62,220 bases of DNA from Candidatus Thorarchaeota archaeon (GCA_048882385.1 JBHLRQ010000005.1:1-62220), one strand, 5' to 3'; shown: positions 12,166 to 43,744, counted from the first letter of the stretch. Made by a program: numbers and translations. Notes: a model not told the origin generated them from the sequence alone.

Positions 12166-12308
12166 CATTTTCTCATCAAATGCACAGTATAGACGTTCAC
12201 ATTTGTACAATGCAGTTCGGAAACGTACCTCATTAACGATGTTCTTGTGGAAAAGGATTAAAGCCTATCCTCTAGTTGCATGTACAGAAGTGTGCATGCT
12301 TCATATCA

Positions 12309-12331
12309 CGAGGATTGTGCGCGAATCCTCG
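12309..12331. repeat. Perfect 8-bp inverted repeat directly upstream of the aminotransferase RBS
   Basis: CGAGGATT-gtgcgcg-AATCCTCG, followed by GGAG and ATG 12345. Confidence 0.6.
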
Positions 12332-12344
12332 GGAGCGGGTACAT

Positions 12345-13622
12345 ATGGCAAATACAATAGGTAATGGCTATAGCTTTGCTACCTGGACTACTTTTATTGA
12401 GGAATCTCAGATTAGGGCTCTTCTCAAGTACAAAGTCAAGTATTACTTTGCTGGTGGAAAGCCTGGAATAATGCCCACTGATATTTTCGCAGATATCATG
12501 GCAGATCTTAGTCAAAGGTATAAAGAGAACCCTAAGTTGGCTCTCGAAGACTTTAATTACGGACCAACTGGGGGTGAGTCTTGGTTCCTGAAGACTTTAG
12601 CCAAGCGGCTTTGTGATGTCAGGGGTATACCCATTGATTGTGAAACCGAGTGGGAGAATGTTTCAATAACTAATGGTTCTCAACAAGCACTCTATGCACT
12701 GCTTGATACGATAATTGACCCGGGTGATGTGATAATCACACCCTCTCCTGCCTATCTTGGATTCCTAGCACCTGCAGAGAAACTTGGTGGCCGTGTCATT
12801 ACTATTCCTACGGACTTGGACGGCATCATTCCGGAGGATGTTGAAAAAGCAATTGGTGTTTCAAAGGAGAAGTTTGGCAAGTGCCCTGACATAATTTATG
12901 TCGTTCCTGACTCAGACAATCCAAAAGGCACAACACTTCCGTTTAAACGTCGTCAAGCACTCTTCGATATTGCTGAAGCTGAAGACATCCTAATTATTGA
13001 GGACTCTGCTTATGCAGAGATTCAATTCAAGAAAAATCCTAAGCCCATCAAGACTCTCGACAAGGAAAACAGTCGAGTTGCCTATCTTGGTACCAGCAGC
13101 AAAGAGGCTGCAGTTCTCCGAGTTGGGTATTCGGTTCTTCCACCAGAGGTCAGAGAGCAGGTTCTCAAGGATAAAGGATACCTAGATCTGTGTACCACTA
13201 CTCTGGTTCAGCGCATTCTGGATGAATATTATCGGAATTATATTGATGAAGCCATGAGGAAAGGAATTCCACAATACGAGGTTCGTTATGAAGCAATGGC
13301 CAAGGCAATTGATGAATCATTTCCAGCCGGAGTGCGAACAGATCCCACAGGAGGATTCTTCATCTGGTGGCAGAGTGAAGACAAGAAATTTGATGCTGGT
13401 AAATTCTTGGAAAGCACTGGTATCCCTAATGACATCTTGTATGTTCCAGGAGTTGCGTTCTATCCTCAGGCTGGGTTCCGGCTTACAAAAGACAACAAAG
13501 ATGTAAGACCAAGTCTTCCAGAGCGCAACACAATGAGATTGGGTTTCTCCTATGCGCCACCTGAAATAATCTCTGAGGGAATTGCTCGTCTAGGGAAACT
13601 CCTCACTAAAGAACTCGGATAG
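12345..13622 (+). CDS. PLP-dependent class I aminotransferase (LysN/MocR-like)
   Basis: TNGSQQAL, DNPKG, IEDSAY, TSSK (PLP lysine), GGFF; start moved to ATG 12345 after GGAG. Confidence 0.88.
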   Translation: MANTIGNGYSFATWTTFIEESQIRALLKYKVKYYFAGGKPGIMPTDIFADIMADLSQRYKENPKLALEDFNYGPTGGESWFLKTLAKRLCDVRGIPIDCETEWENVSITNGSQQALYALLDTIIDPGDVIITPSPAYLGFLAPAEKLGGRVITIPTDLDGIIPEDVEKAIGVSKEKFGKCPDIIYVVPDSDNPKGTTLPFKRRQALFDIAEAEDILIIEDSAYAEIQFKKNPKPIKTLDKENSRVAYLGTSSKEAAVLRVGYSVLPPEVREQVLKDKGYLDLCTTTLVQRILDEYYRNYIDEAMRKGIPQYEVRYEAMAKAIDESFPAGVRTDPTGGFFIWWQSEDKKFDAGKFLESTGIPNDILYVPGVAFYPQAGFRLTKDNKDVRPSLPERNTMRLGFSYAPPEIISEGIARLGKLLTKELG

Positions 13623-13623
13623 T

Positions 13624-15339
13624 TCAGATTGTAAAATTGACGAACACAGTAGCACCATTCTTCATCCGTCCGGTATAGGCTCTCTGATAGGGTCCAAAAA
13701 GATCTGGAAATCCAGAGTTAATTGCCCACTCTATCCAAGACCAAGATACTTCTTGTCCAAGTTTGTTCTCTGCATATTGCCCGAAAGTCCAGCTAAGGTA
13801 CCTCTCAATATCCAATTTTAGAATCTGTAGTCTTTCATAATCCTTGCCTGAAACTACTTCAGCTTTCTTTTCGATGTCCTCATGAGCTCCAAGGAGATAT
13901 GAATGAGAGTCAATTATCATTTTATCCATTTCTTCCAAGTTTTCGTTCATCTCATCAAATCTCTGCTTCTTCCTGAACTTGGAGATCTTTCCCATTATAC
14001 TGAACATCTCTCTGCGATGGAGAACCTCCAATCCCTCTGACTCAAGTGTCTTGGCAAGGCTCTCATTCCATGGTGTGTTAAAGTAGACTCTTGGATATCT
14101 GATAAAAAGAGGAAATGGTATTTTCATTGCTTCTGCTGATGGAATCACTTGAGCATAGTATGCTGCTTCGCCTGGACCGCCTACATGCGCTACTGTCGGA
14201 ATGAGTGTATCGATGACAATCTGCCTTGAGTCCACTCGGGGTGATATGAGCAATGCAATCTCTCCCAAGAAAGGACTGTCCGCAGAAGTTTCAATCTCTA
14301 TGGGTTCAGAACAGGACGGACATTTTCCTTTCAATATTGCAGTAGATCCTCTATCCTCATAGTGAAGCTCTGTACGACTTTTGTTACAGCCTGCCTCCGG
14401 ACACTCATAGAAGAAGGGAACATAATCTGAAGTACGACGACCAATTCCTGAAGAGTAGCCACTTTCAGATATTAGGTCAGTAATCTCTCCGTGTGTTTTC
14501 AGAAAATGGTTTCTGTTTTCACGAGCAAGCATGAACTCCATTCCCTCAACCAAGAGCTCTCTAATCTCCCTGTGTGATGCCGTGAGCAAGGGTATTCCAA
14601 GGTTTCCAATAATGTTGAATAGATGACCAAGTATTTTCTGAGACCATTCTCCAAGTGTTTCTGAGGTTAAGAATGTCTTCCTGATAATAGATAGTGCCTG
14701 CTCAAGCCGTTCTTCGAATAGTAGTCGGGTGCTCCCTTCTAACACCTTGAATATTGGTCTATAGCTTGTCCGTAGATCCTCTTCGACTTGATTTAACCAA
14801 TCATTACTCGGGAGAGGCAACATACTCACAGGAGAATATTCGTAGTCTTTCGGCACGGGAAAACTCACTAGATTGCCTCCCGATCCCATGATTGGAGTCC
14901 TAATATTCGTCAACTCAGATTGAACAATATCGTAGTCCGCAACGCAGAAAAATGGAGTAAGGGGAACTCCTTTTTCCGAGCACAATGATGCAACTTGAAC
15001 GGCTGTGATTGGTTTATTCAGAATGAATGCTGGACCTCCCATCACAATTGTCTGGTGAGCTGATTCCACTGCACCTTCTGACAATGCATCAATATTCTCT
15101 CTCACCTTGGGTGTAAGAATCCCTAGATCCTTGTTGATGCTGAACAATGTCTTCCTCAGTAGAGCTGTTCTCTCAGGAATAAGCCAGAGAGTGTCTTTGT
15201 ACGAGTCTAAAAGAGCTGGAGCCCTATCAACAAGAGCATCCAAATAAATGGGTGGAGAATTGTACAATCTTTTTGCGAGGTCTGCTTTGTTTCCTTTCCA
15301 CACAAACTCTTGGTAGACATTGAATACACTAGGCTCCAT
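13624..15339 (-). CDS. bshC: BshC-like bacillithiol cysteine-adding enzyme (divergent, with Zn-ribbon insert)
   Basis: AHQ..MGGP..ILNK, FFCVADYD, SPRV, HVGGPGEAAYYAQ motifs; directly downstream of bshA; start ATG 15339 with GGAGG RBS. Confidence 0.8.
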   Translation of the reverse strand: MEPSVFNVYQEFVWKGNKADLAKRLYNSPPIYLDALVDRAPALLDSYKDTLWLIPERTALLRKTLFSINKDLGILTPKVRENIDALSEGAVESAHQTIVMGGPAFILNKPITAVQVASLCSEKGVPLTPFFCVADYDIVQSELTNIRTPIMGSGGNLVSFPVPKDYEYSPVSMLPLPSNDWLNQVEEDLRTSYRPIFKVLEGSTRLLFEERLEQALSIIRKTFLTSETLGEWSQKILGHLFNIIGNLGIPLLTASHREIRELLVEGMEFMLARENRNHFLKTHGEITDLISESGYSSGIGRRTSDYVPFFYECPEAGCNKSRTELHYEDRGSTAILKGKCPSCSEPIEIETSADSPFLGEIALLISPRVDSRQIVIDTLIPTVAHVGGPGEAAYYAQVIPSAEAMKIPFPLFIRYPRVYFNTPWNESLAKTLESEGLEVLHRREMFSIMGKISKFRKKQRFDEMNENLEEMDKMIIDSHSYLLGAHEDIEKKAEVVSGKDYERLQILKLDIERYLSWTFGQYAENKLGQEVSWSWIEWAINSGFPDLFGPYQRAYTGRMKNGATVFVNFTI

Positions 15340-15358
15340 TTGGAATTTCAATCCTCCC

Positions 15359-16519
15359 CTATGAAACTGCTTCCTCGAAAACTTTCTCATACATTGTTAC
15401 AATTTTTTCAGCAGAGAACGATTCCTCGACCCGTTTCCTACCAGCTTGTCCCAAACTCTTCCTTTTAGCATCATTCTCTAGTAGCTCAATAATAGTCTGA
15501 GCATATTCTTCTTGTTCGAATCCTTTGGTTACTGCACCATCTTTTCCTGGTCGCACAAGTTCAGGAATTCCACCTGCAGGTGTTGTCACTACTGGAAGAC
15601 TGCATGACATAGCTTCGAGGAGAACGAGTGGCATTCCCTCAAGAGTGGAATTCAGAAGAAACATATCAGCTGAACACATAATCTCTTGCATATTGCTCTT
15701 TACGCCCAAGAGGTGAACATTGTTACAGAGATCGAGAGCCTCAATTTTTCTTTCAACTTCTATTCGAGATGGGCCATCCCCAGCAATAATGAGCCTTACT
15801 TTGGGATAATGATCTGCAACGATTCTCATTATCTCTATTAATTCAACCACGCGTTTGACACCTCGGAAATTTGAAGCATGAAGCAGTATTTTTTCCTCTG
15901 GATTAATTTCCTCCGCCTCTGCATTTGTTCTCAAGCCAACACATCCGCTCTCTACGAACAATCTGACACCGTTGAGATGCTTGAACTGTGTCACATCAAT
16001 AAAATTAGGAATAACCTGGATCTCCCTCTCGATACCTAACTCCTCGTGAGCTTTCTTTTTCAGAAATTCAGAAACCGCAGTTACTGCATTTGCTTTCTCA
16101 ACTGTATGCTTTACTACTGGATTATATGCAGGATCAAGACCGAGAGTGTGCACATCAGAACCATGCAGTGTTACTACATAAGGTACACCAATGATTTCCC
16201 TGGCCATGTATGCAGACATGGCATGAGGGATTGCATAATGGGAGTGTACTAGATCCAGATTGGCATCTTTGGCTATCTTAATGATCTTAGATGTCAATGC
16301 CATAGCATATGGTGGACCAGTTGCCTTGAACAGAGGGTAGTCAAAACGATCTACTAGATCAACGTGAACGCCAGTCGTCTGCTCCCACATTAGGGAGAAA
16401 GGTCTCTGATAGGTGATGAAATGAATAATGTGCTTCCTATGTGCGAGTTGTTGACCTAAACGAGTTGCGAGGTAGCCACTACCCCCTACAGAAGGGTATA
16501 GATTTACTCCGATACGCAT
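15359..16519 (-). CDS. bshA: N-acetyl-alpha-D-glucosaminyl L-malate synthase (GT4)
   Basis: YPSVGGSG, YPLF, HSHYAIPHA, TLHGSD, HASNFRGVKRV, E-x7-E. Confidence 0.92.
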   Translation of the reverse strand: MRIGVNLYPSVGGSGYLATRLGQQLAHRKHIIHFITYQRPFSLMWEQTTGVHVDLVDRFDYPLFKATGPPYAMALTSKIIKIAKDANLDLVHSHYAIPHAMSAYMAREIIGVPYVVTLHGSDVHTLGLDPAYNPVVKHTVEKANAVTAVSEFLKKKAHEELGIEREIQVIPNFIDVTQFKHLNGVRLFVESGCVGLRTNAEAEEINPEEKILLHASNFRGVKRVVELIEIMRIVADHYPKVRLIIAGDGPSRIEVERKIEALDLCNNVHLLGVKSNMQEIMCSADMFLLNSTLEGMPLVLLEAMSCSLPVVTTPAGGIPELVRPGKDGAVTKGFEQEEYAQTIIELLENDAKRKSLGQAGRKRVEESFSAEKIVTMYEKVFEEAVS

Positions 16520-16626
16520 CCTTTCACTCTCCCTTCTCCATCCTTCCTCTGCCCCTTTAAGGCAAATGGTCTGGGAAAATACTTAGCTGCCAAACCTTGA
16601 TTAGATAGTGATAAACACGACTCTGT

Positions 16627-17295
16627 ATGAGCGGTTCAGATGAGGGAACCATTCTTGTTGTAGTTGCGCATCCTGATGATGAAACTCTCGGTGCAGGTGG
16701 TACAATAAGAAAACACACTGAGAACGGTATCCAAGTTGATGTACACTGCATGACTGGCAATGAGGAACGAAACTCTGAGCTCAAAGAGGCTTGTGGTATT
16801 CTTGGAGTTACAAATCTTTACCTGAGTGAACGTGATGATTTTGCAATTGGTCCTGATCTCACAAACGAGGTTGTAGGGGCTATTCTAAAGTCACGACCAA
16901 TGATTATCATTACGCACCACTCTGAAGACTATAACCGCAACCACCAGCAATGTGCTAGAATAGTAGATGAGGCTGCAGAATGGGCCTCACATGCAACTAT
17001 TTTTGAAAATGCACATAGAGTCGAGCGTATCTATAACATGGAGATAAACACACTGATCTCCAAACCAAATGTTCACGTCGATATAACGGAATCCTATCGA
17101 GCTGCACTGTCGGCACTCAAGAAACACAAGTCACAGACCAAAAAGGCAGATACATTCTACGAAAAGTTGTACGATGCAAGGACTCGGCTTCGAGGCGTTC
17201 AGGCAAATTGTAAACGGGCTGAAGCCTTTTCAATAACTCTTCCTCAACATGCTGGTCCATTCTATCGGGAAAATAGTGTCAATCTTTTGATCTGA
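16627..17295 (+). CDS. bshB: PIG-L/BshB-like Zn deacetylase
   Basis: VAHPDDETLGAGG, VDIT, HKSQ, RG...AEAF; divergent from bshA; second motif is NRNH instead of HxDH. Confidence 0.75.
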   Translation: MSGSDEGTILVVVAHPDDETLGAGGTIRKHTENGIQVDVHCMTGNEERNSELKEACGILGVTNLYLSERDDFAIGPDLTNEVVGAILKSRPMIIITHHSEDYNRNHQQCARIVDEAAEWASHATIFENAHRVERIYNMEINTLISKPNVHVDITESYRAALSALKKHKSQTKKADTFYEKLYDARTRLRGVQANCKRAEAFSITLPQHAGPFYRENSVNLLI

Positions 17296-17308: not shown

Positions 17309-17701
17309 CTAAGTGCCTTCAGATTTTCTTCTTCTGGCTGCAAGAAGTTGTTTGAGCTCTCCCATCATGCTCATACCTCCACCCATTGCACCAGCAGGTT
17401 TTGGAGTGGGGGCTTTTGCCATAGTTGGAATTGGTTCTCCTCCGGCTACTGCTGCAGGACCCTCCGCGGCTGCTGAAGGAGCACGCACTGCCATTGATGA
17501 CATCCTGCTCTCAAGTGCACTAACTTTACTCTCCAAATCCATGACCGAAATTTGGAGGTTAGTAATTGCCTCTGTCAGTTTTGTTGTAATTATGCTGACG
17601 ACTTCTCCAAGTTGACGAATCTTCTCTTCATTGGGGTCTTTCAGAGCCCATTCGAATTCGTCCATAATTTCTGCTTCAAGCTCTTGCTTTTCATCTGGCA
17701 T
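17309..17701 (-). CDS. Small coiled-coil protein with Ala/Pro linker and C-terminal VASP-FAB/WH2-like motif
   Basis: Heptads ..LTEAITNLQISVMDLESKVSALESRM; C-terminus GGGMSMMGELKQLLAARRRKSEGT; own TTTATA box at about 17744-17749 supports ATG 17701. Confidence 0.7.
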   Translation of the reverse strand: MPDEKQELEAEIMDEFEWALKDPNEEKIRQLGEVVSIITTKLTEAITNLQISVMDLESKVSALESRMSSMAVRAPSAAAEGPAAVAGGEPIPTMAKAPTPKPAGAMGGGMSMMGELKQLLAARRRKSEGT

Positions 17702-17760
17702 TATATTGACCCCGTGACTTAGGTTGAGAAGCTGGAGTTCCGCTATAAACCTTGTTTGCA

Positions 17761-35782: not shown

Positions 35783-37105
35783 CTAGAAGTCTGCTCCAGT
35801 TCTTCCAGAACCCCAAGAATCCATGGCCAACTTGAGTTCCTCATGTCCCTCTTCCTTAGCATATCTACTCACTGGAATCCCCTGGATTTTTGCATCCATG
35901 GCTTGTCTGAATGCAATGGCTCCAGCACGTGGTCCATTTGGATGAGCATGGATACCAGCTCCTGTTCCAATCACAATGTCAGGACCTAAATCATCTATGA
36001 CTTCTTCAACATGTCCTGGGCTGATACCACCACTCGGCATTGGGGCGGTCTGCTCTATGTTATGTAGGGGCATAATCATATCATGTGCAACATTGAGATA
36101 TCGCTCCTTGAGGACAGGTGCTTTTCCATAGGGCGCAGGAAACACCGTGATATCAGAACCACAGATTCGCGGAAGTTTCCCTGTAACAATATTAGATGAT
36201 ATGCCAACTATGGGTGAATAGGTCATCGCTCCTGTTACATCCATATGCGCAAGTAAGGGTACTTTCGGAGCAAGATTTTCACTAACATGCCGGAATGCTG
36301 AATATCCTACAGCAAGAAAATTGATCATCAACCCGTTCGCTCCCAATTCAATAGCCTTCTCCGCATTTTCAAACATTCTTGGAAGCCTATCAGTGATATT
36401 TACTGTATAGATTGTTTTCTCACCCTTCTCAGAATCTGCCCTATCGAGTGCCTCCATAAATCGTGGAATCCGGTCTTCAAGTGTATTGAAATCAGGATTT
36501 GCCAGTAGTTCGTCATCCTTTATGATATCCGCACCGCCAGCAGCCGCCTCATATGCGAGATCAGCGCCCATCTCGCAGGAAGTATAGACACAGGGCTTGA
36601 CCATGTTGTTCAAGATAGGTCTCTTCTTAATTTTCAACAGCTTTCGTAGACCCTTGATACCATATTTTGGACCCTTGAATCCCTTGAGCCAGCTCTTCGG
36701 GAATTTCATGTCTAAACACTTGATTCTACCATAAAGGGAGATGTTACCGATGACTGTACTAAGTAACATTGGGATCTGTTGTCCGAAATTCTCCCAGGGA
36801 TATGCAACCTGCATGATATACTGTCTTCTCTCGAGGTCTTTTGGGAAACTGTATTCATATTGAGGTACCTCATAGACGCCTATCACTTTAGCAACATGTC
36901 TTCTTCGAACCGCAGGGGTTTCACCAGGCACAAGAGTCCATGTTCCTGTACTCTGTTCAACAGCTGCATCATGAGCCAAACTCCTTGCATCCATGAAAGG
37001 CGGGAGTCCGACATAGTATGTACATATCACATACTTCTCTTCATCAATAGCATCAGGTAATGCATCAGGCAATGCATCGAGTGGAAGCTCTACCATTATA
37101 ATCAA
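35783..37105 (-). CDS. RuBisCO-like protein (form IV)
   Basis: EQSTGTW, KDDE, GK loop 6, SGG. The K177 equivalent is C (VKPC) and the R295 equivalent is M (AHMD), which argues against a true RuBP carboxylase. Confidence 0.88.
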   Translation of the reverse strand: MIIMVELPLDALPDALPDAIDEEKYVICTYYVGLPPFMDARSLAHDAAVEQSTGTWTLVPGETPAVRRRHVAKVIGVYEVPQYEYSFPKDLERRQYIMQVAYPWENFGQQIPMLLSTVIGNISLYGRIKCLDMKFPKSWLKGFKGPKYGIKGLRKLLKIKKRPILNNMVKPCVYTSCEMGADLAYEAAAGGADIIKDDELLANPDFNTLEDRIPRFMEALDRADSEKGEKTIYTVNITDRLPRMFENAEKAIELGANGLMINFLAVGYSAFRHVSENLAPKVPLLAHMDVTGAMTYSPIVGISSNIVTGKLPRICGSDITVFPAPYGKAPVLKERYLNVAHDMIMPLHNIEQTAPMPSGGISPGHVEEVIDDLGPDIVIGTGAGIHAHPNGPRAGAIAFRQAMDAKIQGIPVSRYAKEEGHEELKLAMDSWGSGRTGADF

Positions 37106-38478: not shown

Positions 38479-40080
38479 ATGAAACTAATAACCGAAGTAG
38501 CAAAAGATGCTGGAATCGATGAGAAACACCTCGAGAATTATGGAAGATATATGGCAAAAATAAATCTCAATGTTCGAAAAGAATTGGGCAAACGAAAAGG
38601 CAAACTGATTCTTGTAACAGCAACAAATCCTACCCCTGCTGGTGAAGGAAAAACAACCAATTCAATCGGTCTTTCTATGGCATTGAACGCGTTAGGACAC
38701 AATGCAGTTGTCACACTTAGGCAACCCTCTTTGGGTCCTGTTTTTGGTATAAAGGGTGGAGCAGCAGGTGGTGGCAAGTCTACAGTTGAGCCTTTTGAGC
38801 AAATCAACCTGATGTTTACTGGGGACTTTCCCGCAGTATCCGCAGCTGGAAATCTGCTTTCAGCAATGATTGACAACTACATTCACCACGATAAACAACC
38901 TGAGCTAGATGTCAGGAGAACCTATTGGCCGCGAAATTTGGATATGAATGACAGAGCTCTCCGGAAAGTGATTATAGGTCTAGGAGGTAGGTTTGACGGA
39001 TTCCCCAGAGAAGACAGCTTTGTAATAACTTCTGCTTCTGAGGTCATGGCAATCCTAGGTCTCTCAATGGACTATAAAGAACTGAAAGAGCGTCTGGGAA
39101 AAATCCTTGTCGGAAGGTCTGAACAACTCGAGGATATGTTCGCGAGGGATTTAGGAGCAGAGAAAGCAATGGCTGTGATTCTCCGAGACGCACTCAAACC
39201 AAATATTGTTCAAACACAAGAAGGGACTCCTGCCATGATTCATTCTGGTCCTTTCGCAAACATTGCTCACGGTACTAGCTCAATCATTGCTACAGATATT
39301 GCCTTGAAACTGTTTGATTACGTTGTGATAGAAGCTGGATTTGGAGCAGACTTGGGTGCTGAAAAGTTCTTCAACATAGTGACCAGAACCGGTAACTTTG
39401 ATGTTGATGCTTGTGTTGTTGTCACAACAATTCGTGCGCTCAAATATCATGGCTGTGATGATCTTGAGGCTGGATTCCCAAACCTTGAGAAGCACGTAGA
39501 GAATGTCAACAACTTCGGTGTGCCAGCTGTTGTCGCACTCAATCGATTTCCAGACGATACCGAAGAAGAGATTGACCTACTCCGTCAGTTCTGTAAAAGC
39601 AAAGGTTGGAGGATGGAAGTATCGGAGGTCTTCGCCAAGGGTAGTGAGGGTGGAAAGGCTTTGGGTGAAGCTGTCATTGAGGCAATCGCCAATCGTACTA
39701 GTAAGGGTATCAACTATACGTACGACCTGAAAGATCCTATCAAGACCAAGATTCTGAAGGTGGCTCAACAAATCTATGGGGCTGATGATGTTGACTACAC
39801 GACTGGTGCTAGTGGAAGGATACGGTCCTTCGAAAAACGAGGATATGGAAACCTACCCATATGCATAGCCAAGACCCAATTCAGTCTGTCCGACACAAGA
39901 AGTCTGAGATGTCGACCTTCACATTTCGATGTTGAGGTTAATGGTGTTGATGTAAGTAACGGTGCTGGATTCATTGTGGTGTATATGGGTGATATCAATC
40001 TCATGCCCGGGCTCCCAGAAGAACCAGCAGCCTTAGGAATGGATGTAGATGATGATGGGAACATTAGTGGAGTCTTCTAA
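38479..40080 (+). CDS. fhs: Formate--tetrahydrofolate ligase
   Basis: TPAGEGKTT, GIKGGAAGGG, GPFANIAHG, EAGFGADLGAEKF, AKTQ. Confidence 0.96.
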   Translation: MKLITEVAKDAGIDEKHLENYGRYMAKINLNVRKELGKRKGKLILVTATNPTPAGEGKTTNSIGLSMALNALGHNAVVTLRQPSLGPVFGIKGGAAGGGKSTVEPFEQINLMFTGDFPAVSAAGNLLSAMIDNYIHHDKQPELDVRRTYWPRNLDMNDRALRKVIIGLGGRFDGFPREDSFVITSASEVMAILGLSMDYKELKERLGKILVGRSEQLEDMFARDLGAEKAMAVILRDALKPNIVQTQEGTPAMIHSGPFANIAHGTSSIIATDIALKLFDYVVIEAGFGADLGAEKFFNIVTRTGNFDVDACVVVTTIRALKYHGCDDLEAGFPNLEKHVENVNNFGVPAVVALNRFPDDTEEEIDLLRQFCKSKGWRMEVSEVFAKGSEGGKALGEAVIEAIANRTSKGINYTYDLKDPIKTKILKVAQQIYGADDVDYTTGASGRIRSFEKRGYGNLPICIAKTQFSLSDTRSLRCRPSHFDVEVNGVDVSNGAGFIVVYMGDINLMPGLPEEPAALGMDVDDDGNISGVF

Positions 40081-40084
40081 TTAG

Positions 40085-40978
40085 GTGATTGTAATGTCTG
40101 AAGAAGTTGAACTAAAACCAATCTGCGAGGACCATGTCATCAAGGGTCGTAGACTATCGAACCGTCTGAGGAACGAGGTCAAAGATGAGGTTGAAAAACT
40201 CGTTAAGAAACACAAAGTTCCTCCCAAACTCGTTACAATTATCGTAGGTGAGGATCCGGGCTCAAAGATGTACGTCAAGATGAAACATAAGGCGTCAAAC
40301 AAAGCTGGTATCCTCTCTGAAAACTATGACCTGCCTGAATCCACAACTCAGAAGGAACTTCTCAAGCTACTCTCCAAACTCAATGATGACAAGAGGGTCC
40401 ATGGGATTCTTGTTCAACTGCCCCTCCCCAATCACATCGATGAGAAAACGATCATAGGGGCAATTGATCCTCTGAAGGATGTTGATGGCTTCTCTCCAAC
40501 AAACGTATACCGTCTCTTCTATGGAGAGGAGGATCTCAGCGCAGCGACACCTCATGGTATTGTCACAATACTTGATCGGATCGGTTGGAATGACCTATCC
40601 GGTAAGCATGCTGTTATCATCAATAGATCCAATATTGTTGGTAAACCTCTCATCATGCTTCTCTTGAACAGAAACGCGACTGTGACAGTCTGTCATTCAC
40701 GGACAAAGGATCTCTCATCCTTCACAAGACAAGCCGATGTTCTTGTGACTGCGATTGGTCGACGAACAAGCGATGGGGATCCATTCTTCATCACTGAAGA
40801 TATGATTAAGAAGGACTCGGTGGTGATAGATGTTTCAACTCCACATGGCGATGCAGACTTCGAGAAAATCAAGGAAAAGGCCATTTGTATCACGCCAGTA
40901 CCTGGCGGCGTTGGACCAATGACCATCGCAATGCTGCTAAAGAATGTCCTTGCTGCCTACATAGCACAGATTTCATGA
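40085..40978 (+). CDS. folD: Methylenetetrahydrofolate dehydrogenase/cyclohydrolase
   Basis: YVKMK, GILVQLPLP, KDVDG, RSNIVGKP, TPVPGGVGPMT. Confidence 0.95.
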   Translation: MIVMSEEVELKPICEDHVIKGRRLSNRLRNEVKDEVEKLVKKHKVPPKLVTIIVGEDPGSKMYVKMKHKASNKAGILSENYDLPESTTQKELLKLLSKLNDDKRVHGILVQLPLPNHIDEKTIIGAIDPLKDVDGFSPTNVYRLFYGEEDLSAATPHGIVTILDRIGWNDLSGKHAVIINRSNIVGKPLIMLLLNRNATVTVCHSRTKDLSSFTRQADVLVTAIGRRTSDGDPFFITEDMIKKDSVVIDVSTPHGDADFEKIKEKAICITPVPGGVGPMTIAMLLKNVLAAYIAQIS

Positions 40979-41049
40979 AGTGAATGATTTATCTCAAAGG
41001 TATGTTGTAGTCTAATGCACTATCCTTTGTATGGGGAAGTGGTTTCAGA

Positions 41050-42099
41050 ATGGAGATTGATATCAAACCAATTGACTTTCGAAGCGCTACAAGAGATGAG
41101 TGGAAACTGTATCATACATATCGCAGAAAGCAAATGGCCGAAGAGTTTCCTGGTGATCCAATTCTAGATGATGAACAAACAGAAGTTTGGATGCAATCTG
41201 ATTACGATGACTTTGAGGTCTTCTCCTATTCAATTACAAGACATGATAATCCTAACGAGATGATTGCCTATCTTAGATTGAGATATGTAAGCGAAGGTGC
41301 ACCATCATATCCTGGAAATGAGAACATCATGCGAATGATGTTGTATGTTCTCAAAGACTACCGAAGAGAAGGCATAGGTAGAAAACTGCTGAAACTTGCT
41401 GCTAACCTTGCCAAAGAACATGGAAAGGCAATCATGTCAACTGGAACGACCCAAGAAGATGGGCGGAAAGCCCTGAAAAAACTAGGCGCTAAGGAAGCCC
41501 TCACCATGAGGGAAACTCGTACTAATCTTGAAGAAATTGATTGGGCGATGGTCAACACATGGAAAGATGAGGGTCCCAAGCGGTCACCAGATTCAAAGTT
41601 GGAATTCTATACGAAAATTCCTGATGAGATCCTTGAAAATTATTGCAGGGTGTATACTGAGGTTTTCAATCAGGCGCCTATAGACGAATTACAGAGAGGT
41701 GATATTGTCTTCACCCCTGAAAAATGGAGAAAAGATGAAGAGAAGGCAGAAAAAACTGGAATAACATGGATAACAGCGATGGTTCGGGAAAAGAACGGTG
41801 ATATTGCTGGATTGACAGATGTGTATTATGAGCCCAAACATGCACCACTCATGTATCAAGCACTCACTGGAGTTCCGGAGAAATATCGTGGTAGTGGAAA
41901 GGGTAAATGGCTCAAAGCTGCAATGCTTCTAAAAATCAGTGAAGACTTTCCTGATATCAAAATTATTGCAACACAAAATGCAACCTCAAATGCTCCAATG
42001 CTTGCTATTAACGATCGCCTCGGATTCAAGGTTCATATGCAGCACTTCAGTTGCCAGATTGAAACAGAGGAGGTTGTAGATTATCTGAAAAAGAAATGA
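41050..42099 (+). CDS. Tandem GNAT acetyltransferase
   Basis: YRREGIG and YRGSGKG acetyl-CoA motifs; NAPMLAINDRLGF. Confidence 0.85.
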   Translation: MEIDIKPIDFRSATRDEWKLYHTYRRKQMAEEFPGDPILDDEQTEVWMQSDYDDFEVFSYSITRHDNPNEMIAYLRLRYVSEGAPSYPGNENIMRMMLYVLKDYRREGIGRKLLKLAANLAKEHGKAIMSTGTTQEDGRKALKKLGAKEALTMRETRTNLEEIDWAMVNTWKDEGPKRSPDSKLEFYTKIPDEILENYCRVYTEVFNQAPIDELQRGDIVFTPEKWRKDEEKAEKTGITWITAMVREKNGDIAGLTDVYYEPKHAPLMYQALTGVPEKYRGSGKGKWLKAAMLLKISEDFPDIKIIATQNATSNAPMLAINDRLGFKVHMQHFSCQIETEEVVDYLKKK

Positions 42100-42160
42100 T
42101 TGTGTAGTTCAGATTCAATAATAATGAACGTGCCCAAACGCTTTTGTAGACTGTCATCCC

Positions 42161-43744
42161 GTGCGGGCATCGGTGAATCTTGTGAAAGTAGTTGAGTGTG
42201 TACCCAACTTTTCAGAAGGACGAGACAAGAAGGTAATTGACGCGCTCTCAGAAGCCATCAAGAGTGTCGAGGGAGTCCGACTTCTTGATGTTGAATTTGA
42301 TCCAGATCATAACCGATCTGTCTTCACGTTCATTGGCGAACCGCAGCCAGTGAAGGAGGCTGCCTTGAAGGCTGCTGAACTTGCTGTTGAAAAGATCGAC
42401 CTGACCAAACATGAGGGTGCCCATCCACGAATGGGCGCTGTGGATGTGGTGCCATTCATTCCACTCCATGGTGTAACGATTGGGGAGTGCATTGAGCTTT
42501 CAAAGCAGTTTGGTGAGGAGTTCTCCAAGAAGTGCAATGTTCCCGTGTTCCTTTATTCAAAATCTGCGACACGACCAGACAGAGTTGATCTTCCAAACAT
42601 CCGAGAAGGCGAGTTTGAAGCTCTCAGAGAACAGATTGGTCAAGTCCCAGAAAAGGAACCCGACTTCGGACCAAACAAGATACACCCAACTGCAGGAGCT
42701 ACAGCCACTGGTGCTCGAAACTTTCTCATTGCAATAAACTTCAATCTGAACACAACGAACCTTGAGGTTGCGAAGATATGCGCTGATGCAGTTCGTGGCT
42801 TGACTGGTGGCTTTGTTAATGTGCAGGGCATTGGTCTTGACTTACCTGCAAAGAAATGTGTACAAGTATCAACAAACCTGACACATCCTCGAAGGACGAA
42901 GATTCACCAAGTGTTGGAGGTTGTAAAGAACGAAGCTCGTCGTTTTGGTGCCACTGTCGTTGAAACTGAGATTATAGGAATGGTCCCGCTCTTTGCACTC
43001 CTTGATGCACTCAGATATTACATCCAACCTGAGAGGCTTGATGAGGATATGATCCTAGACCTTTACTATCTGGGTGGAGGATCCGATCCAACTAAGAAGA
43101 CATTCACTGAGATGTCTATGATTGAGTTTGGCAACCAAGTCCGTCGAGCACGTGCGACCCCTGGTGGAGGAAGTGTTGCCGCAGCTCTTGGATCATTTGG
43201 AGCTGGTCTAGTTTGTATGGTCACTGGATTGTCAATCTCAGGTCGTAAGTTCGCTGGTATTAAAGAGGAAATGCGCGAACACAGGCACGCATGTGAATAC
43301 GACCGTGGAGTTCTAATGGACAACATCGAGAAAGACTCTGAAGCTTTTGATGTCGTGATGGAAACATTCAGGATGCCTGAGGAAACAACTGCTGAGAAGA
43401 AGAAGAAAGAGGTTGCTACCCAGAAAGCAACAATCGAAGCTGCCAATGTGCCTTTAAACACAATGCAGCATTCCTTCAACGCATTAACACATGCCAAAGT
43501 GGCTGCTGAGAAGGGGAATATCAACGCAATCACTGATGCTGGAGTTGCAGCTCATGCCCTCATGGCTGCAATAGAAGGAGCAGCACTGAATGTACGGATA
43601 AATCTCGGTAACATTACGGACAAGTCATTTGTTGATAAAACATCAAAAGCAGTAGAGAAACTGCTCACAGATGGTGCTAAGATTAAGGCTGAGATCCTAG
43701 AGGTTGTAGAAGCTCGTATGAAGAAGCTTGCTGATAACAATTAG
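42161..43744 (+). CDS. ftcd: Fused glutamate formiminotransferase / formiminotetrahydrofolate cyclodeaminase
   Basis: ECVPNFSEGR, DHNRSV, HPRMGAVDVVPF; C-terminal cyclodeaminase TPGGGSVAA, GNINAITD, LNVRINL. Confidence 0.93.
   Translation: MRASVNLVKVVECVPNFSEGRDKKVIDALSEAIKSVEGVRLLDVEFDPDHNRSVFTFIGEPQPVKEAALKAAELAVEKIDLTKHEGAHPRMGAVDVVPFIPLHGVTIGECIELSKQFGEEFSKKCNVPVFLYSKSATRPDRVDLPNIREGEFEALREQIGQVPEKEPDFGPNKIHPTAGATATGARNFLIAINFNLNTTNLEVAKICADAVRGLTGGFVNVQGIGLDLPAKKCVQVSTNLTHPRRTKIHQVLEVVKNEARRFGATVVETEIIGMVPLFALLDALRYYIQPERLDEDMILDLYYLGGGSDPTKKTFTEMSMIEFGNQVRRARATPGGGSVAAALGSFGAGLVCMVTGLSISGRKFAGIKEEMREHRHACEYDRGVLMDNIEKDSEAFDVVMETFRMPEETTAEKKKKEVATQKATIEAANVPLNTMQHSFNALTHAKVAAEKGNINAITDAGVAAHALMAAIEGAALNVRINLGNITDKSFVDKTSKAVEKLLTDGAKIKAEILEVVEARMKKLADNN

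Follow-up and report, generated by a model that had tools for sequence, protein, structure and literature searches.

Positions 13,624 to 17,295 of a 62,220-nucleotide stretch of DNA from a Candidatus Thorarchaeota archaeon (GCA_048882385.1, JBHLRQ010000005.1:1-62220; "the window" below always means this whole stretch) hold a compact cluster of three genes, which encode a BshA glycosyltransferase, a PIG-L/LmbE-family deacetylase and a BshC-like protein. These are the three enzyme families of bacillithiol (BSH) biosynthesis. The genome to which the window belongs, as contig 5, comprises 3.7 Mb in 256 contigs and is 95.3% complete, at a contamination of 4.9%. The parts of the cluster lie as follows.

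15359..16519, minus strand: bshA, 386 aa; glycosyltransferase family 4 (GT4) retaining enzyme, predicted (N-acetyl)hexosaminyl-malate synthase.
15629..15640, minus strand: E294-G295-M296-P297 of BshA; first Glu of the EX7E motif and variant of the ESFG sugar-contact motif.
13624..15339, minus strand: BshC-like gene, 571 aa from the ATG at 15339; predicted cysteine-adding enzyme with a class I aminoacyl-tRNA synthetase (aaRS)-like Rossmann fold.
14311..14403, minus strand: Cys-rich, zinc-ribbon-like insert of the BshC-like protein, with C313, C318, C340 and C343 (571-aa numbering).
16520..16626, no strand: 107-bp gap separating the divergent bshA and PIG-L genes, read from the sequence.
16627..17295, plus strand: PIG-L/LmbE-family, BshB-like gene, 222 aa; predicted N-acetylglucosamine (GlcNAc)-malate deacetylase.

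On the minus strand, bshA comes first and the BshC-like gene follows 19 nt on, which bears out the co-orientation described in a sequence-only reading of the same DNA. That reading also placed the PIG-L gene divergently across a shared region of about 100 bp, close to the 107 bp found here, which we presume to hold the promoters of both bshA and the PIG-L gene. The longest open reading frame (ORF) of the BshC-like gene runs from 13624 to 15390 on the minus strand and would encode 588 aa. Its second ATG, at 15339, is the probable start codon. A GGAGG sequence lies 13 nt upstream of this ATG and the bshA stop is 19 nt away, and 571 aa is the length of the window's own called BshC-like protein as well as of most of the relatives listed.

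The assignment of BshA is solid at the sequence level. The protein scores 373.4 bits against TIGR03999, for which the equivalog cut-off is 273.7, and it is the only match above that cut-off in the whole genome. The same GT4 protein reaches 60.8 bits on the MshA model and 67.8 bits on that of GlcNAc-phosphatidylglycerol synthase. The solved BshA structures 2JJM, 3MBO and 5D00 are matched with E values of 1e-75 to 1e-72, and the alignments with the solved enzymes of Bacillus anthracis, Bacillus subtilis and Staphylococcus aureus run from end to end (E 1e-75 to 1e-59). The catalytic EX7E motif is present as E294...E302, and the segments LHGSD, NFID and SNFRGVKR correspond to LHGTD, NFID and SNFRKVKR in B. 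anthracis BshA, one T being replaced by S. According to the available part of one article, H118, T120, N171, K209 and E288 are of importance in S. aureus BshA (PMC10361700); when these numbers are mapped onto the motifs of the window's protein, the positions appear to read H, S, N and K.

The BshC-like protein matches PF10079 over residues 76-430 with 66 bits (gathering score 27), and at the sequence level solved BshC gives only a borderline match to it (E 0.002). Because this protein and the deacetylase both lie far below their equivalog cut-offs, we assigned them by fold, conserved residues and gene linkage. The AlphaFold model of the BshC-like protein, built from 66 aligned sequences, has a mean predicted local distance difference test score (pLDDT) of 96.4 and a predicted template modeling score (pTM) of 0.94. 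Its top structural match is B. subtilis BshC (4WBD), with a VIA-align Z score of 38.3 and a root mean square deviation of 2.9 Å over 470 aligned residues; Foldseek gives the same structure E 2.4e-21 and template modeling (TM) scores of 0.69/0.73, and the identity in the structural alignment is about 17%. The second match is a class I lysyl-tRNA synthetase (LysRS; 1IRX, Z 23.8, 299 residues aligned), while all remaining aaRS have Z values of at most 13 and MshC (3C8Z) has 10.8. The match of 1IRX covers only the catalytic core of the model at 16% identity, and nothing suggests tRNA charging. The model hints that the BshC family derived from a LysRS-I-like ancestor.

An exhaustive search of 1.84 billion cluster representatives with the BshC-like protein returned 933 relatives at E ≤ 1e-3, of which 48 reach E ≤ 1e-30; proteins with the length of bacterial BshC enter only at about 1e-13 to 1e-8. 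Conservation was read from 66 sequences, consisting of archaeal-type proteins and 30 weak-hit BshC-length representatives that are mostly bacterial-type, although the Cys motif is found in at least two of the 30, and these fall with the archaeal type in the tree. Q96, K109, D137 and G388 are invariant in this set and all present in the window's protein, and G102, P129, E142, R322, E391, Y394, P410, Q529 and E530 are conserved in at least 90% of the sequences. The archaeal-type lineage is marked by a Cys-rich segment at residues 313-343 (CPEAGC...CPSC), in which C313, C340 and C343 are invariant among 27 archaeal-type representatives and C318 is at least 90% conserved among 12 closer ones. The aligned bacterial-type sequences have no Cys at the position of the insert, and two CxnC motifs anywhere in the protein occur in only 3 of 75. 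In the model, short beta-strands cross residues 309-352 at the Cys-rich segment, which we read as a zinc ribbon that would bind metal. A quick maximum-likelihood tree of 83 sequences (LG+G4, support by the Shimodaira-Hasegawa-like approximate likelihood-ratio test (SH-aLRT) only, unrooted, many rows of skewed composition) places 36 archaeal-type rows on one side of a branch with SH-aLRT 99 and the bacterial-type sequences on the other; the support is 100 when four further Cys-bearing representatives join the archaeal-type rows. As judged from alignment and model, the protein is a BshC by its fold and conserved core, yet of a distinct lineage.

The divergent gene clearly encodes, to judge from its sequence, a protein of the PIG-L/LmbE family, with 74.8 bits against PF02585 (cut-off 28.2). 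The best solved relative is BC1534 of Bacillus cereus (2IXD, E 9e-16), and BshB1 (6P2T) is matched at E 3e-9. The metal/catalytic AHxDD motif is present as AHPDDE, which aligns with AHADDV of BC1534, and the segment nrnH, holding the downstream conserved His, aligns with hpdH.

We examined the distribution of these genes in 301 Asgard genomes other than the window's own, which fall under 30 family codes with f1 as the window's family. BshC-like matches occur in 170 of the 301, including five weak cross-hits (one in f16 and four in f27). They are found in 74/76 genomes of f1, 27/28 of f5, 17/19 of f12, 11/11 of f14, 19/21 of f22, 4/7 of f24, 3/3 of f26, 2/2 of f29, 1/1 of f18, 1/1 of f25 and 5/68 of f9. 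BshA above the cut-off is present in 134/301 genomes, from f1, f5, f12, f14, f18, f25, f26 and f27. Around the BshC-like gene, 64 Thor-like species loci were compared over up to 5 kb on each side, many of them truncated where the contig stops; 54 contain bshA and 50 PIG-L, a co-occurrence of the trio that, as far as gene order can tell, is not due to chance. The orientation of the pair changes between families, as bshA and the BshC-like gene are co-directional in f1, convergent in f5, f12, f18 and f26, and 3-6 kb apart in f14, and a PIG-L gene adjoins the pair in f12 and f26. In addition, archaeal-type BshC occurs at 35-38% identity in 14 loci labelled Bathyarchaeota or Bathyarchaeia, with PIG-L in 13 and bshA in 11 of them; the BshA scores there are 276-413 bits in the five loci scanned. 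The synteny comparison that the sequence-only reading had suggested as a check therefore finds the trio linked in several Asgard families and in Bathyarchaeia. Since this linkage outlasts rearrangement across families and reaches into another archaeal phylum, it is the strongest evidence that the three genes act together.

Three neighbours flank the cluster.

12276..13622, plus strand: class I/II aminotransferase, convergent with the BshC-like gene.
17309..17761, minus strand: 150-aa ORF between PIG-L and glmM, not assigned to the pathway.
17761..19158, minus strand: archaeal glmM (phosphoglucosamine mutase), TIGR03990 522 bits (cut-off 439).

The glmM gene ends 466 bp past the PIG-L stop, in keeping with the distance of about 0.5 kb given before. 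The proposed link of glmM with the cluster holds in 46 of the 64 Thor-like loci and fails in Bathyarchaeia (0/14), so that glmM is a neighbour only within this family. The aminotransferase was considered as a pathway-specific member and rejected. It accompanies the BshC-like gene in 59 of the 64 loci and is convergent with it both in the window and in f22, where the protein is 52% identical. However, orthologues are present in 177/301 Asgard genomes, including families f2, f4, f6, f8, f11, f15, f16, f17 and f20 that have no such BshC, and lie elsewhere in f5, f12 and f27; it is for these reasons that we do not regard it as specific to the pathway. The product of the 150-aa ORF has a coiled-coil N-terminal half and a tail rich in Ala, Pro, Gly and Met, and Pfam and NCBIfam scans gave no match for it; two other genera of the same family keep an ORF at this position, of 145 aa (L040) and 142 aa (L041). 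Scans of the window for tRNAs and Rfam families found neither. In f12, the gene of a 406-aa transglutaminase-core (Cys-protease-fold) protein (L030:4997-6217) shares 4 nt with the beginning of the BshC-like gene, and the two look co-transcribed. Three Bathyarchaeia loci have an Amidohydro_2-family gene of about 315 aa between PIG-L and the BshC-like gene (L109:3957-4907, L110:4018-4980 and L115:3975-4922).

BSH is chiefly a bacterial thiol, and the cluster might stem from bacterial DNA contaminating the bin, or have been transferred very recently and lack a role in the archaeon. Two BshC-like relatives do come from bins labelled as bacterial, one Patescibacteria (L119) and one Desulfaltia (L121). 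Both are archaeal-type genes at 36% identity on short contigs, and they are probably mis-binned archaeal contigs, although a bacterial occurrence is possible; in L119 a DinB_2 gene directly follows the BshC-like gene. The closest BshC-like proteins (57-81% identity among the matches listed) and their loci were labelled Candidatus Thorarchaeota or Promethearchaeota by their depositors. Besides the archaeal GlmM, the window encodes a Ras-family small GTPase (25210-25758, plus strand), a RuBisCO large-subunit-like protein (35783-37105, minus strand), an aldehyde:ferredoxin oxidoreductase and leucine-rich repeat proteins. A plus-strand group at 38479-43744 comprises formate-tetrahydrofolate ligase, FolD and formiminotransferase-cyclodeaminase, with a GNAT-family gene at 41050-42099 among them. 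We take this gene content to fit an Asgard archaeon, and the G+C content is even across the window (0.41-0.47). Because of the labels of the relatives and the archaeal gene content, we regard the cluster as archaeal and not as a stray bacterial contig, as the sequence-only reading had assumed. The presence of the BshC-like gene in nearly all sampled genomes of the same family, the archaeal genes on the same 62-kb contig and the separation of archaeal-type BshC from the bacterial-type sequences in the tree already contradict contamination or recent transfer, which on these sequence comparisons is exceedingly improbable.

Taken at the level of sequence, the cluster is real and strongly conserved, and it is probably an archaeal variant of the bacillithiol pathway that makes a BSH-type thiol. 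The evidence consists of family-level gene identities, protein fold, residue conservation, gene linkage and phyletic distribution; from it we infer the substrates, the order of steps and the product as follows. BshA would transfer an N-acetylhexosamine, presumably GlcNAc from uridine diphosphate (UDP)-GlcNAc, to L-malate, and the neighbouring GlmM may help to supply the precursor of UDP-GlcNAc. The divergent PIG-L/LmbE protein, a predicted zinc deacetylase, would then strip the acetyl group, and the BshC-like enzyme, with its class I aaRS-like fold and additional Cys-rich zinc ribbon, would attach cysteine to the free amine. The predicted product is a low-molecular-weight thiol composed of cysteine, hexosamine (HexN) and malate. 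Its main users are probably the many DinB-superfamily (thiol S-transferase-like) proteins that the genome encodes, and not the bacilliredoxin/Bdr system of Firmicutes, which was looked for and not found.

Several observations weigh against this interpretation, and they concern the genes, the use of the thiol and the sugar donor. Regarding the genes, the comparison with TIGRFAM hidden Markov models, proposed as a check along with the sequence-only reading, places BshA above its cut-off and the other two proteins below theirs. The BshC-like protein scores 77.1 bits against TIGR03998 (cut-off 265.8), a threshold that is reached in 0/76 genomes of f1, and the deacetylase scores 84.6 bits against BshB1 (TIGR04001, cut-off 182.5) and 58.7 bits against BshB2 (TIGR04000, cut-off 195.25). 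The earlier description of the cluster as complete is thus correct for the families and, at equivalog level, for BshA alone. A Pfam scan of the window's BshC-like protein gave no match to the BshC coiled-coil domain PF24850, though the domain was found in f27; the model has long helices at residues 443-519, and its alignment with 4WBD spans residues 2-569. Furthermore, a second PIG-L paralogue of 278 aa on contig 223 of the same genome scores slightly higher than the window's deacetylase on both BshB models (99.9 bits for BshB1 and 93.9 for BshB2), so that the deacetylase of the pathway is identified by its linkage alone. In f22, the BshC-like gene is present in 19/21 genomes, with only two BshA-like matches in the 21, both weak; therefore at least one lineage must use another partner, and f22 may pair BshC with another glycosyltransferase. 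The f22 gene is convergent with the same aminotransferase and lies near arginyl-tRNA synthetase and an LPG_synthase_TM protein (L035:8155-11135, L036:5921-8960).

The second PIG-L gene brings up a different assignment of the cluster. PIG-A-type enzymes belong to GT4 and PIG-L gives the deacetylase family its name, so that the GT4 and PIG-L proteins could form a pathway to a glucosamine (GlcN)-inositol-phospholipid of the glycosylphosphatidylinositol (GPI)-anchor type, with the BshC-like gene unrelated. The genome does hold a second pair of this kind on contig 223 (G000, L004:238-2626, minus strand), where a 378-aa GT4 protein adjoins the second PIG-L and a HIT-family protein. However, this GT4 reaches only 55.7 bits on the BshA model, and a lipid pathway of this kind would more plausibly fall to the contig 223 pair; this pair may serve a separate GlcNAc-X to GlcN-X conversion (lipid- or GPI-like), or its deacetylase may be a BshB2/amidase-type paralogue. 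The GT4 of the window scores far higher on BshA than on MshA or GlcNAc-phosphatidylglycerol synthase, and the BshC-like gene, read as co-transcribed with it here, is found next to this GT4 gene in several families as well as in a second phylum. A GPI-like role for the window's pair is very unlikely in our view.

In favour of a thiol product stand the DinB genes, which occur both within clusters and across genomes. The Bathyarchaeia loci examined continue, after BshA or the BshC-like gene, with one to three genes in tandem whose products match DinB_2 and, less strongly, the mycothiol-S-transferase family; in one locus a thioredoxin-like gene separates bshC from bshA. There are 11 DinB_2 genes above the Pfam cut-off in the window's genome, and the same search matched only 5 of 14 control genomes (B. 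subtilis, Thermus, Deinococcus, Bacteroides and Synechococcus). Among the sampled Asgard genomes, 171/301 have DinB_2, with up to 13 copies per genome in f22. BshC of either type is found in 13 of the 30 family codes (f1, f5, f9, f12, f14, f18, f20, f22, f24, f25, f26, f27 and f29), and DinB_2 likewise in 13, with f13 in place of f20; 12 codes share both and 16 have neither, although these patterns were compared after having been seen and related genomes are non-independent samples. Within f9, the BshC-like gene is present in G243, G249, G264, G270 and G276 and DinB_2 in G207, G243, G264, G270 and G276, with four genomes in common. DinB proteins also have other roles, and we consider their co-distribution and neighbourhood supportive, but not proof, of a thiol product.

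A second set of points against the interpretation concerns the redox enzymes of the bacillithiol system. In the 95.3%-complete genome, BrxA/B (TIGR04191) and BrxC/YtxJ (TIGR04019) have no match, and the best match to YpdA/Bdr (TIGR04018) has 81 bits (cut-off 339.9). The available part of a 2020 review states that BSH has been detected in no archaeon (PMC7278568), and this absence of a measured thiol counts here as well. The failure to find Brx or Bdr would fit a product that is not a redox thiol; the BshC-like enzyme would then add an amino acid other than cysteine or act elsewhere, and HexN-malate or a derivative would serve as a compatible solute or cell-envelope precursor. The low identity of the protein to B. 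subtilis BshC, from which its substrate is not readable, agrees with such a role. To our knowledge, cysteine ligation by a purified BshC has not been reconstituted, even with the bacterial enzyme, and this leaves the same room. Nevertheless, the family-invariant BshC residues are kept, DinB and thioredoxin-like genes stand inside the Bathyarchaeia clusters and DinB_2 follows BshC or BshC-like genes across Asgard families, and we consider a non-thiol product quite unlikely. As a side observation, f14 has a 303-aa thioredoxin-reductase-like flavoprotein gene with a CAVC site, divergent from the BshC-like gene (L033:8301-9212, L039:8401-9315), with oxoprolinase/hydantoinase A and B genes between it and bshA. 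By gene content, this is a candidate thiol-recycling neighbourhood. As for the flavoprotein being the missing disulfide reductase, its CAVC site is ordinary, and the window's genome offers nothing closer to it than a protein of 28-30% identity, short of a close orthologue.

The third set of points concerns the sugar donor. In S. aureus BshA the ESFG motif touches GlcNAc, according to the available part of the structural article (PMC10361700), and the window's BshA reads EGMP where B. anthracis BshA has ESFG. EGMP is found in 46 of 54 Thor-like BshA proteins, f12 BshA reads EGAP and Bathyarchaeia BshA reads ESAP in 10 of 11, whereas canonical relatives with a readable motif have ESFG in 111 of 118 and Pro at this place in none of the 118. 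It is possible that the divergent BshA motif, deacetylase and zinc-ribbon BshC mirror different substrates and that the cluster makes a thiol related to bacillithiol but chemically distinct, through another hexosamine (e.g. galactosamine from UDP-N-acetylgalactosamine), another hydroxy-acid aglycone or a further modification. The mechanism would be the one proposed above, of which this is a sub-case; only the product would differ. The same article, again in its available part, reports that the GT4 domain of the Neisseria meningitidis W capsule polymerase is switched between UDP-Gal and UDP-Glc by whether Pro or Gly occupies this position (PMC10361700), and both the strongly supported separation of archaeal-type BshC and the lack of matches to the known BSH-recycling enzymes fit a distinct product. 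On the other hand, the Pro/Gly rule stems from a different GT4 enzyme, the window's BshA is still 100 bits above the equivalog cut-off, the positions aligned to the key S. aureus residues H/T, N and K read H, S, N and K, and the glmM neighbour fits UDP-GlcNAc. ESFG is retained in the BshA of f5, f14, f26 and f27. As f5, f14 and f26 combine archaeal-type BshC with ESFG BshA, the peculiarities of the BshA motif and of BshC are uncoupled. We therefore take a chemically distinct thiol seriously, while thinking it the less probable outcome. A bacillithiol-like thiol, as the sequence-only reading proposed, stands as the best interpretation of the cluster, with the qualification that the product may differ from bacillithiol itself, because the accessory enzymes (Brx without a match and Bdr below its cut-off) were not found and the GlcNAc-contact motif is altered.

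The pathway also exists in canonical form within the phylum, because f27 and one f20 genome have the three genes as a bshC-bshB-bshA operon, each scoring above its equivalog cut-off (380, 228 and 413 bits). Canonical BshC above the cut-off is found in 10/301 genomes, with 0/76 in f1. The f27 operon serves the same three functions as the window's cluster and stands in an Asgard gene context with Roadblock/LC7 neighbours; however, in the window only BshA passes its cut-off. The f27 BshC nests among bacterial-type sequences in the 83-sequence tree, the nearest bacterium-labelled matches of f27 BshA are mostly Bacteroidota at 45-49% identity, and proteins nearly identical to those of f27 are labelled Heimdallarchaeota, Asgard group and others. 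The f27 operon looks like a separate acquisition from bacteria, and the window's type looks like an older, archaeal lineage. Asgard archaea would then have obtained the pathway at least twice.

Comparison with known systems places the cluster nearest to bacillithiol synthesis by BshA, BshB and BshC, as found in Bacillus, Staphylococcus, Deinococcus-Thermus and Bacteroidota/Chlorobiota, since the same three enzyme families lie at one locus, and DinB-superfamily genes are abundant in the window's genome too. The differences are that the window's BshC falls in an archaeal clade of its own, marked by a Cys-rich zinc ribbon, and scores 77 bits where the cut-off is 265.8, that its deacetylase is below the cut-off, that its BshA has EGMP and not ESFG, and that BrxA/B and BrxC are without a match and YpdA is below the cut-off; moreover, the pathway is known here from genes alone. 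Mycothiol synthesis by MshA, MshB and MshC follows the same logic, in that a GT4 enzyme acts first, a deacetylase of the LmbE family second and a cysteine ligase resembling class I aaRS third, and DinB-type S-transferases use the thiol. However, the window's GT4 has only 60.8 bits on MshA and its BshC-like model matches MshC with Z 10.8, compared with 38.3 for BshC. The aglycone is inositol phosphate in mycothiol, whereas it is malate in the bacillithiol-type pathway.

Homologues of BshA and BshC in Asgard archaea are already in print and in database annotation and are not new. Rawat and Maupin-Furlow (2020) list, in the part of the review that is available, 39 archaeal InterPro matches each for BshA and BshC, mostly from Asgard archaea (PMC7278568), so that the suspicion of earlier reports voiced in the sequence-only reading was justified, and in NCBI annotation the archaeal proteins already bear the name "bacillithiol biosynthesis BshC". 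A study of NmbA from 2025, in its available part, describes BLAST searches of RefSeq with Chlorobaculum queries (E 1e-20, 80% coverage, 25% identity) that found no archaeon with BshA, BshB and BshC together (PMC12719100). This negative may be due to the divergence of the archaeal BshB-like and BshC-like proteins and to the genomes being mostly metagenome-assembled, which would reconcile it with the InterPro matches of 2020. The available part of PMC8261052 treats Thermus, and literature searches for bacillithiol with Asgard, Thorarchae and Bathyarchae returned no further paper whose listing ties bsh genes to these archaea. The searchable literature yielded no mention of the archaeal BshC clade with its zinc ribbon, of the full cluster with a deacetylase, of the variant BshA motif, of the Bathyarchaeia cluster beside DinB genes or of the co-distribution with DinB. 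What the present analysis adds is accordingly specific: the archaeal zinc-ribbon clade of BshC, the variant motif of BshA, the Bathyarchaeia cluster beside thiol-transferase-like genes and the phyletic link to DinB.

A wider and more speculative proposal, which we think unlikely to hold in full, would join these specifics. Asgard archaea (Thorarchaeota and several other families) and Bathyarchaeia would share an ancient archaeal BSH lineage, whose zinc-ribbon BshC would be the sister group of all bacterial BshC, with a structure near that of class I LysRS. In the branch formed by Thorarchaeota, f12 and Bathyarchaeia, BshA with an E-x-x-P motif would make a thiol distinct from bacillithiol (e.g. 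with another hexosamine), and these archaea would rely on it as their main low-molecular-weight thiol, alongside DinB-type transferases and a reductase of another kind. The genes by themselves are a find of the expected kind. The locus nevertheless offers a concrete three-gene set that bears on which low-molecular-weight thiol Asgard archaea use, and if the thiol were confirmed, it would bear on the redox biology of the lineage nearest to eukaryotes.

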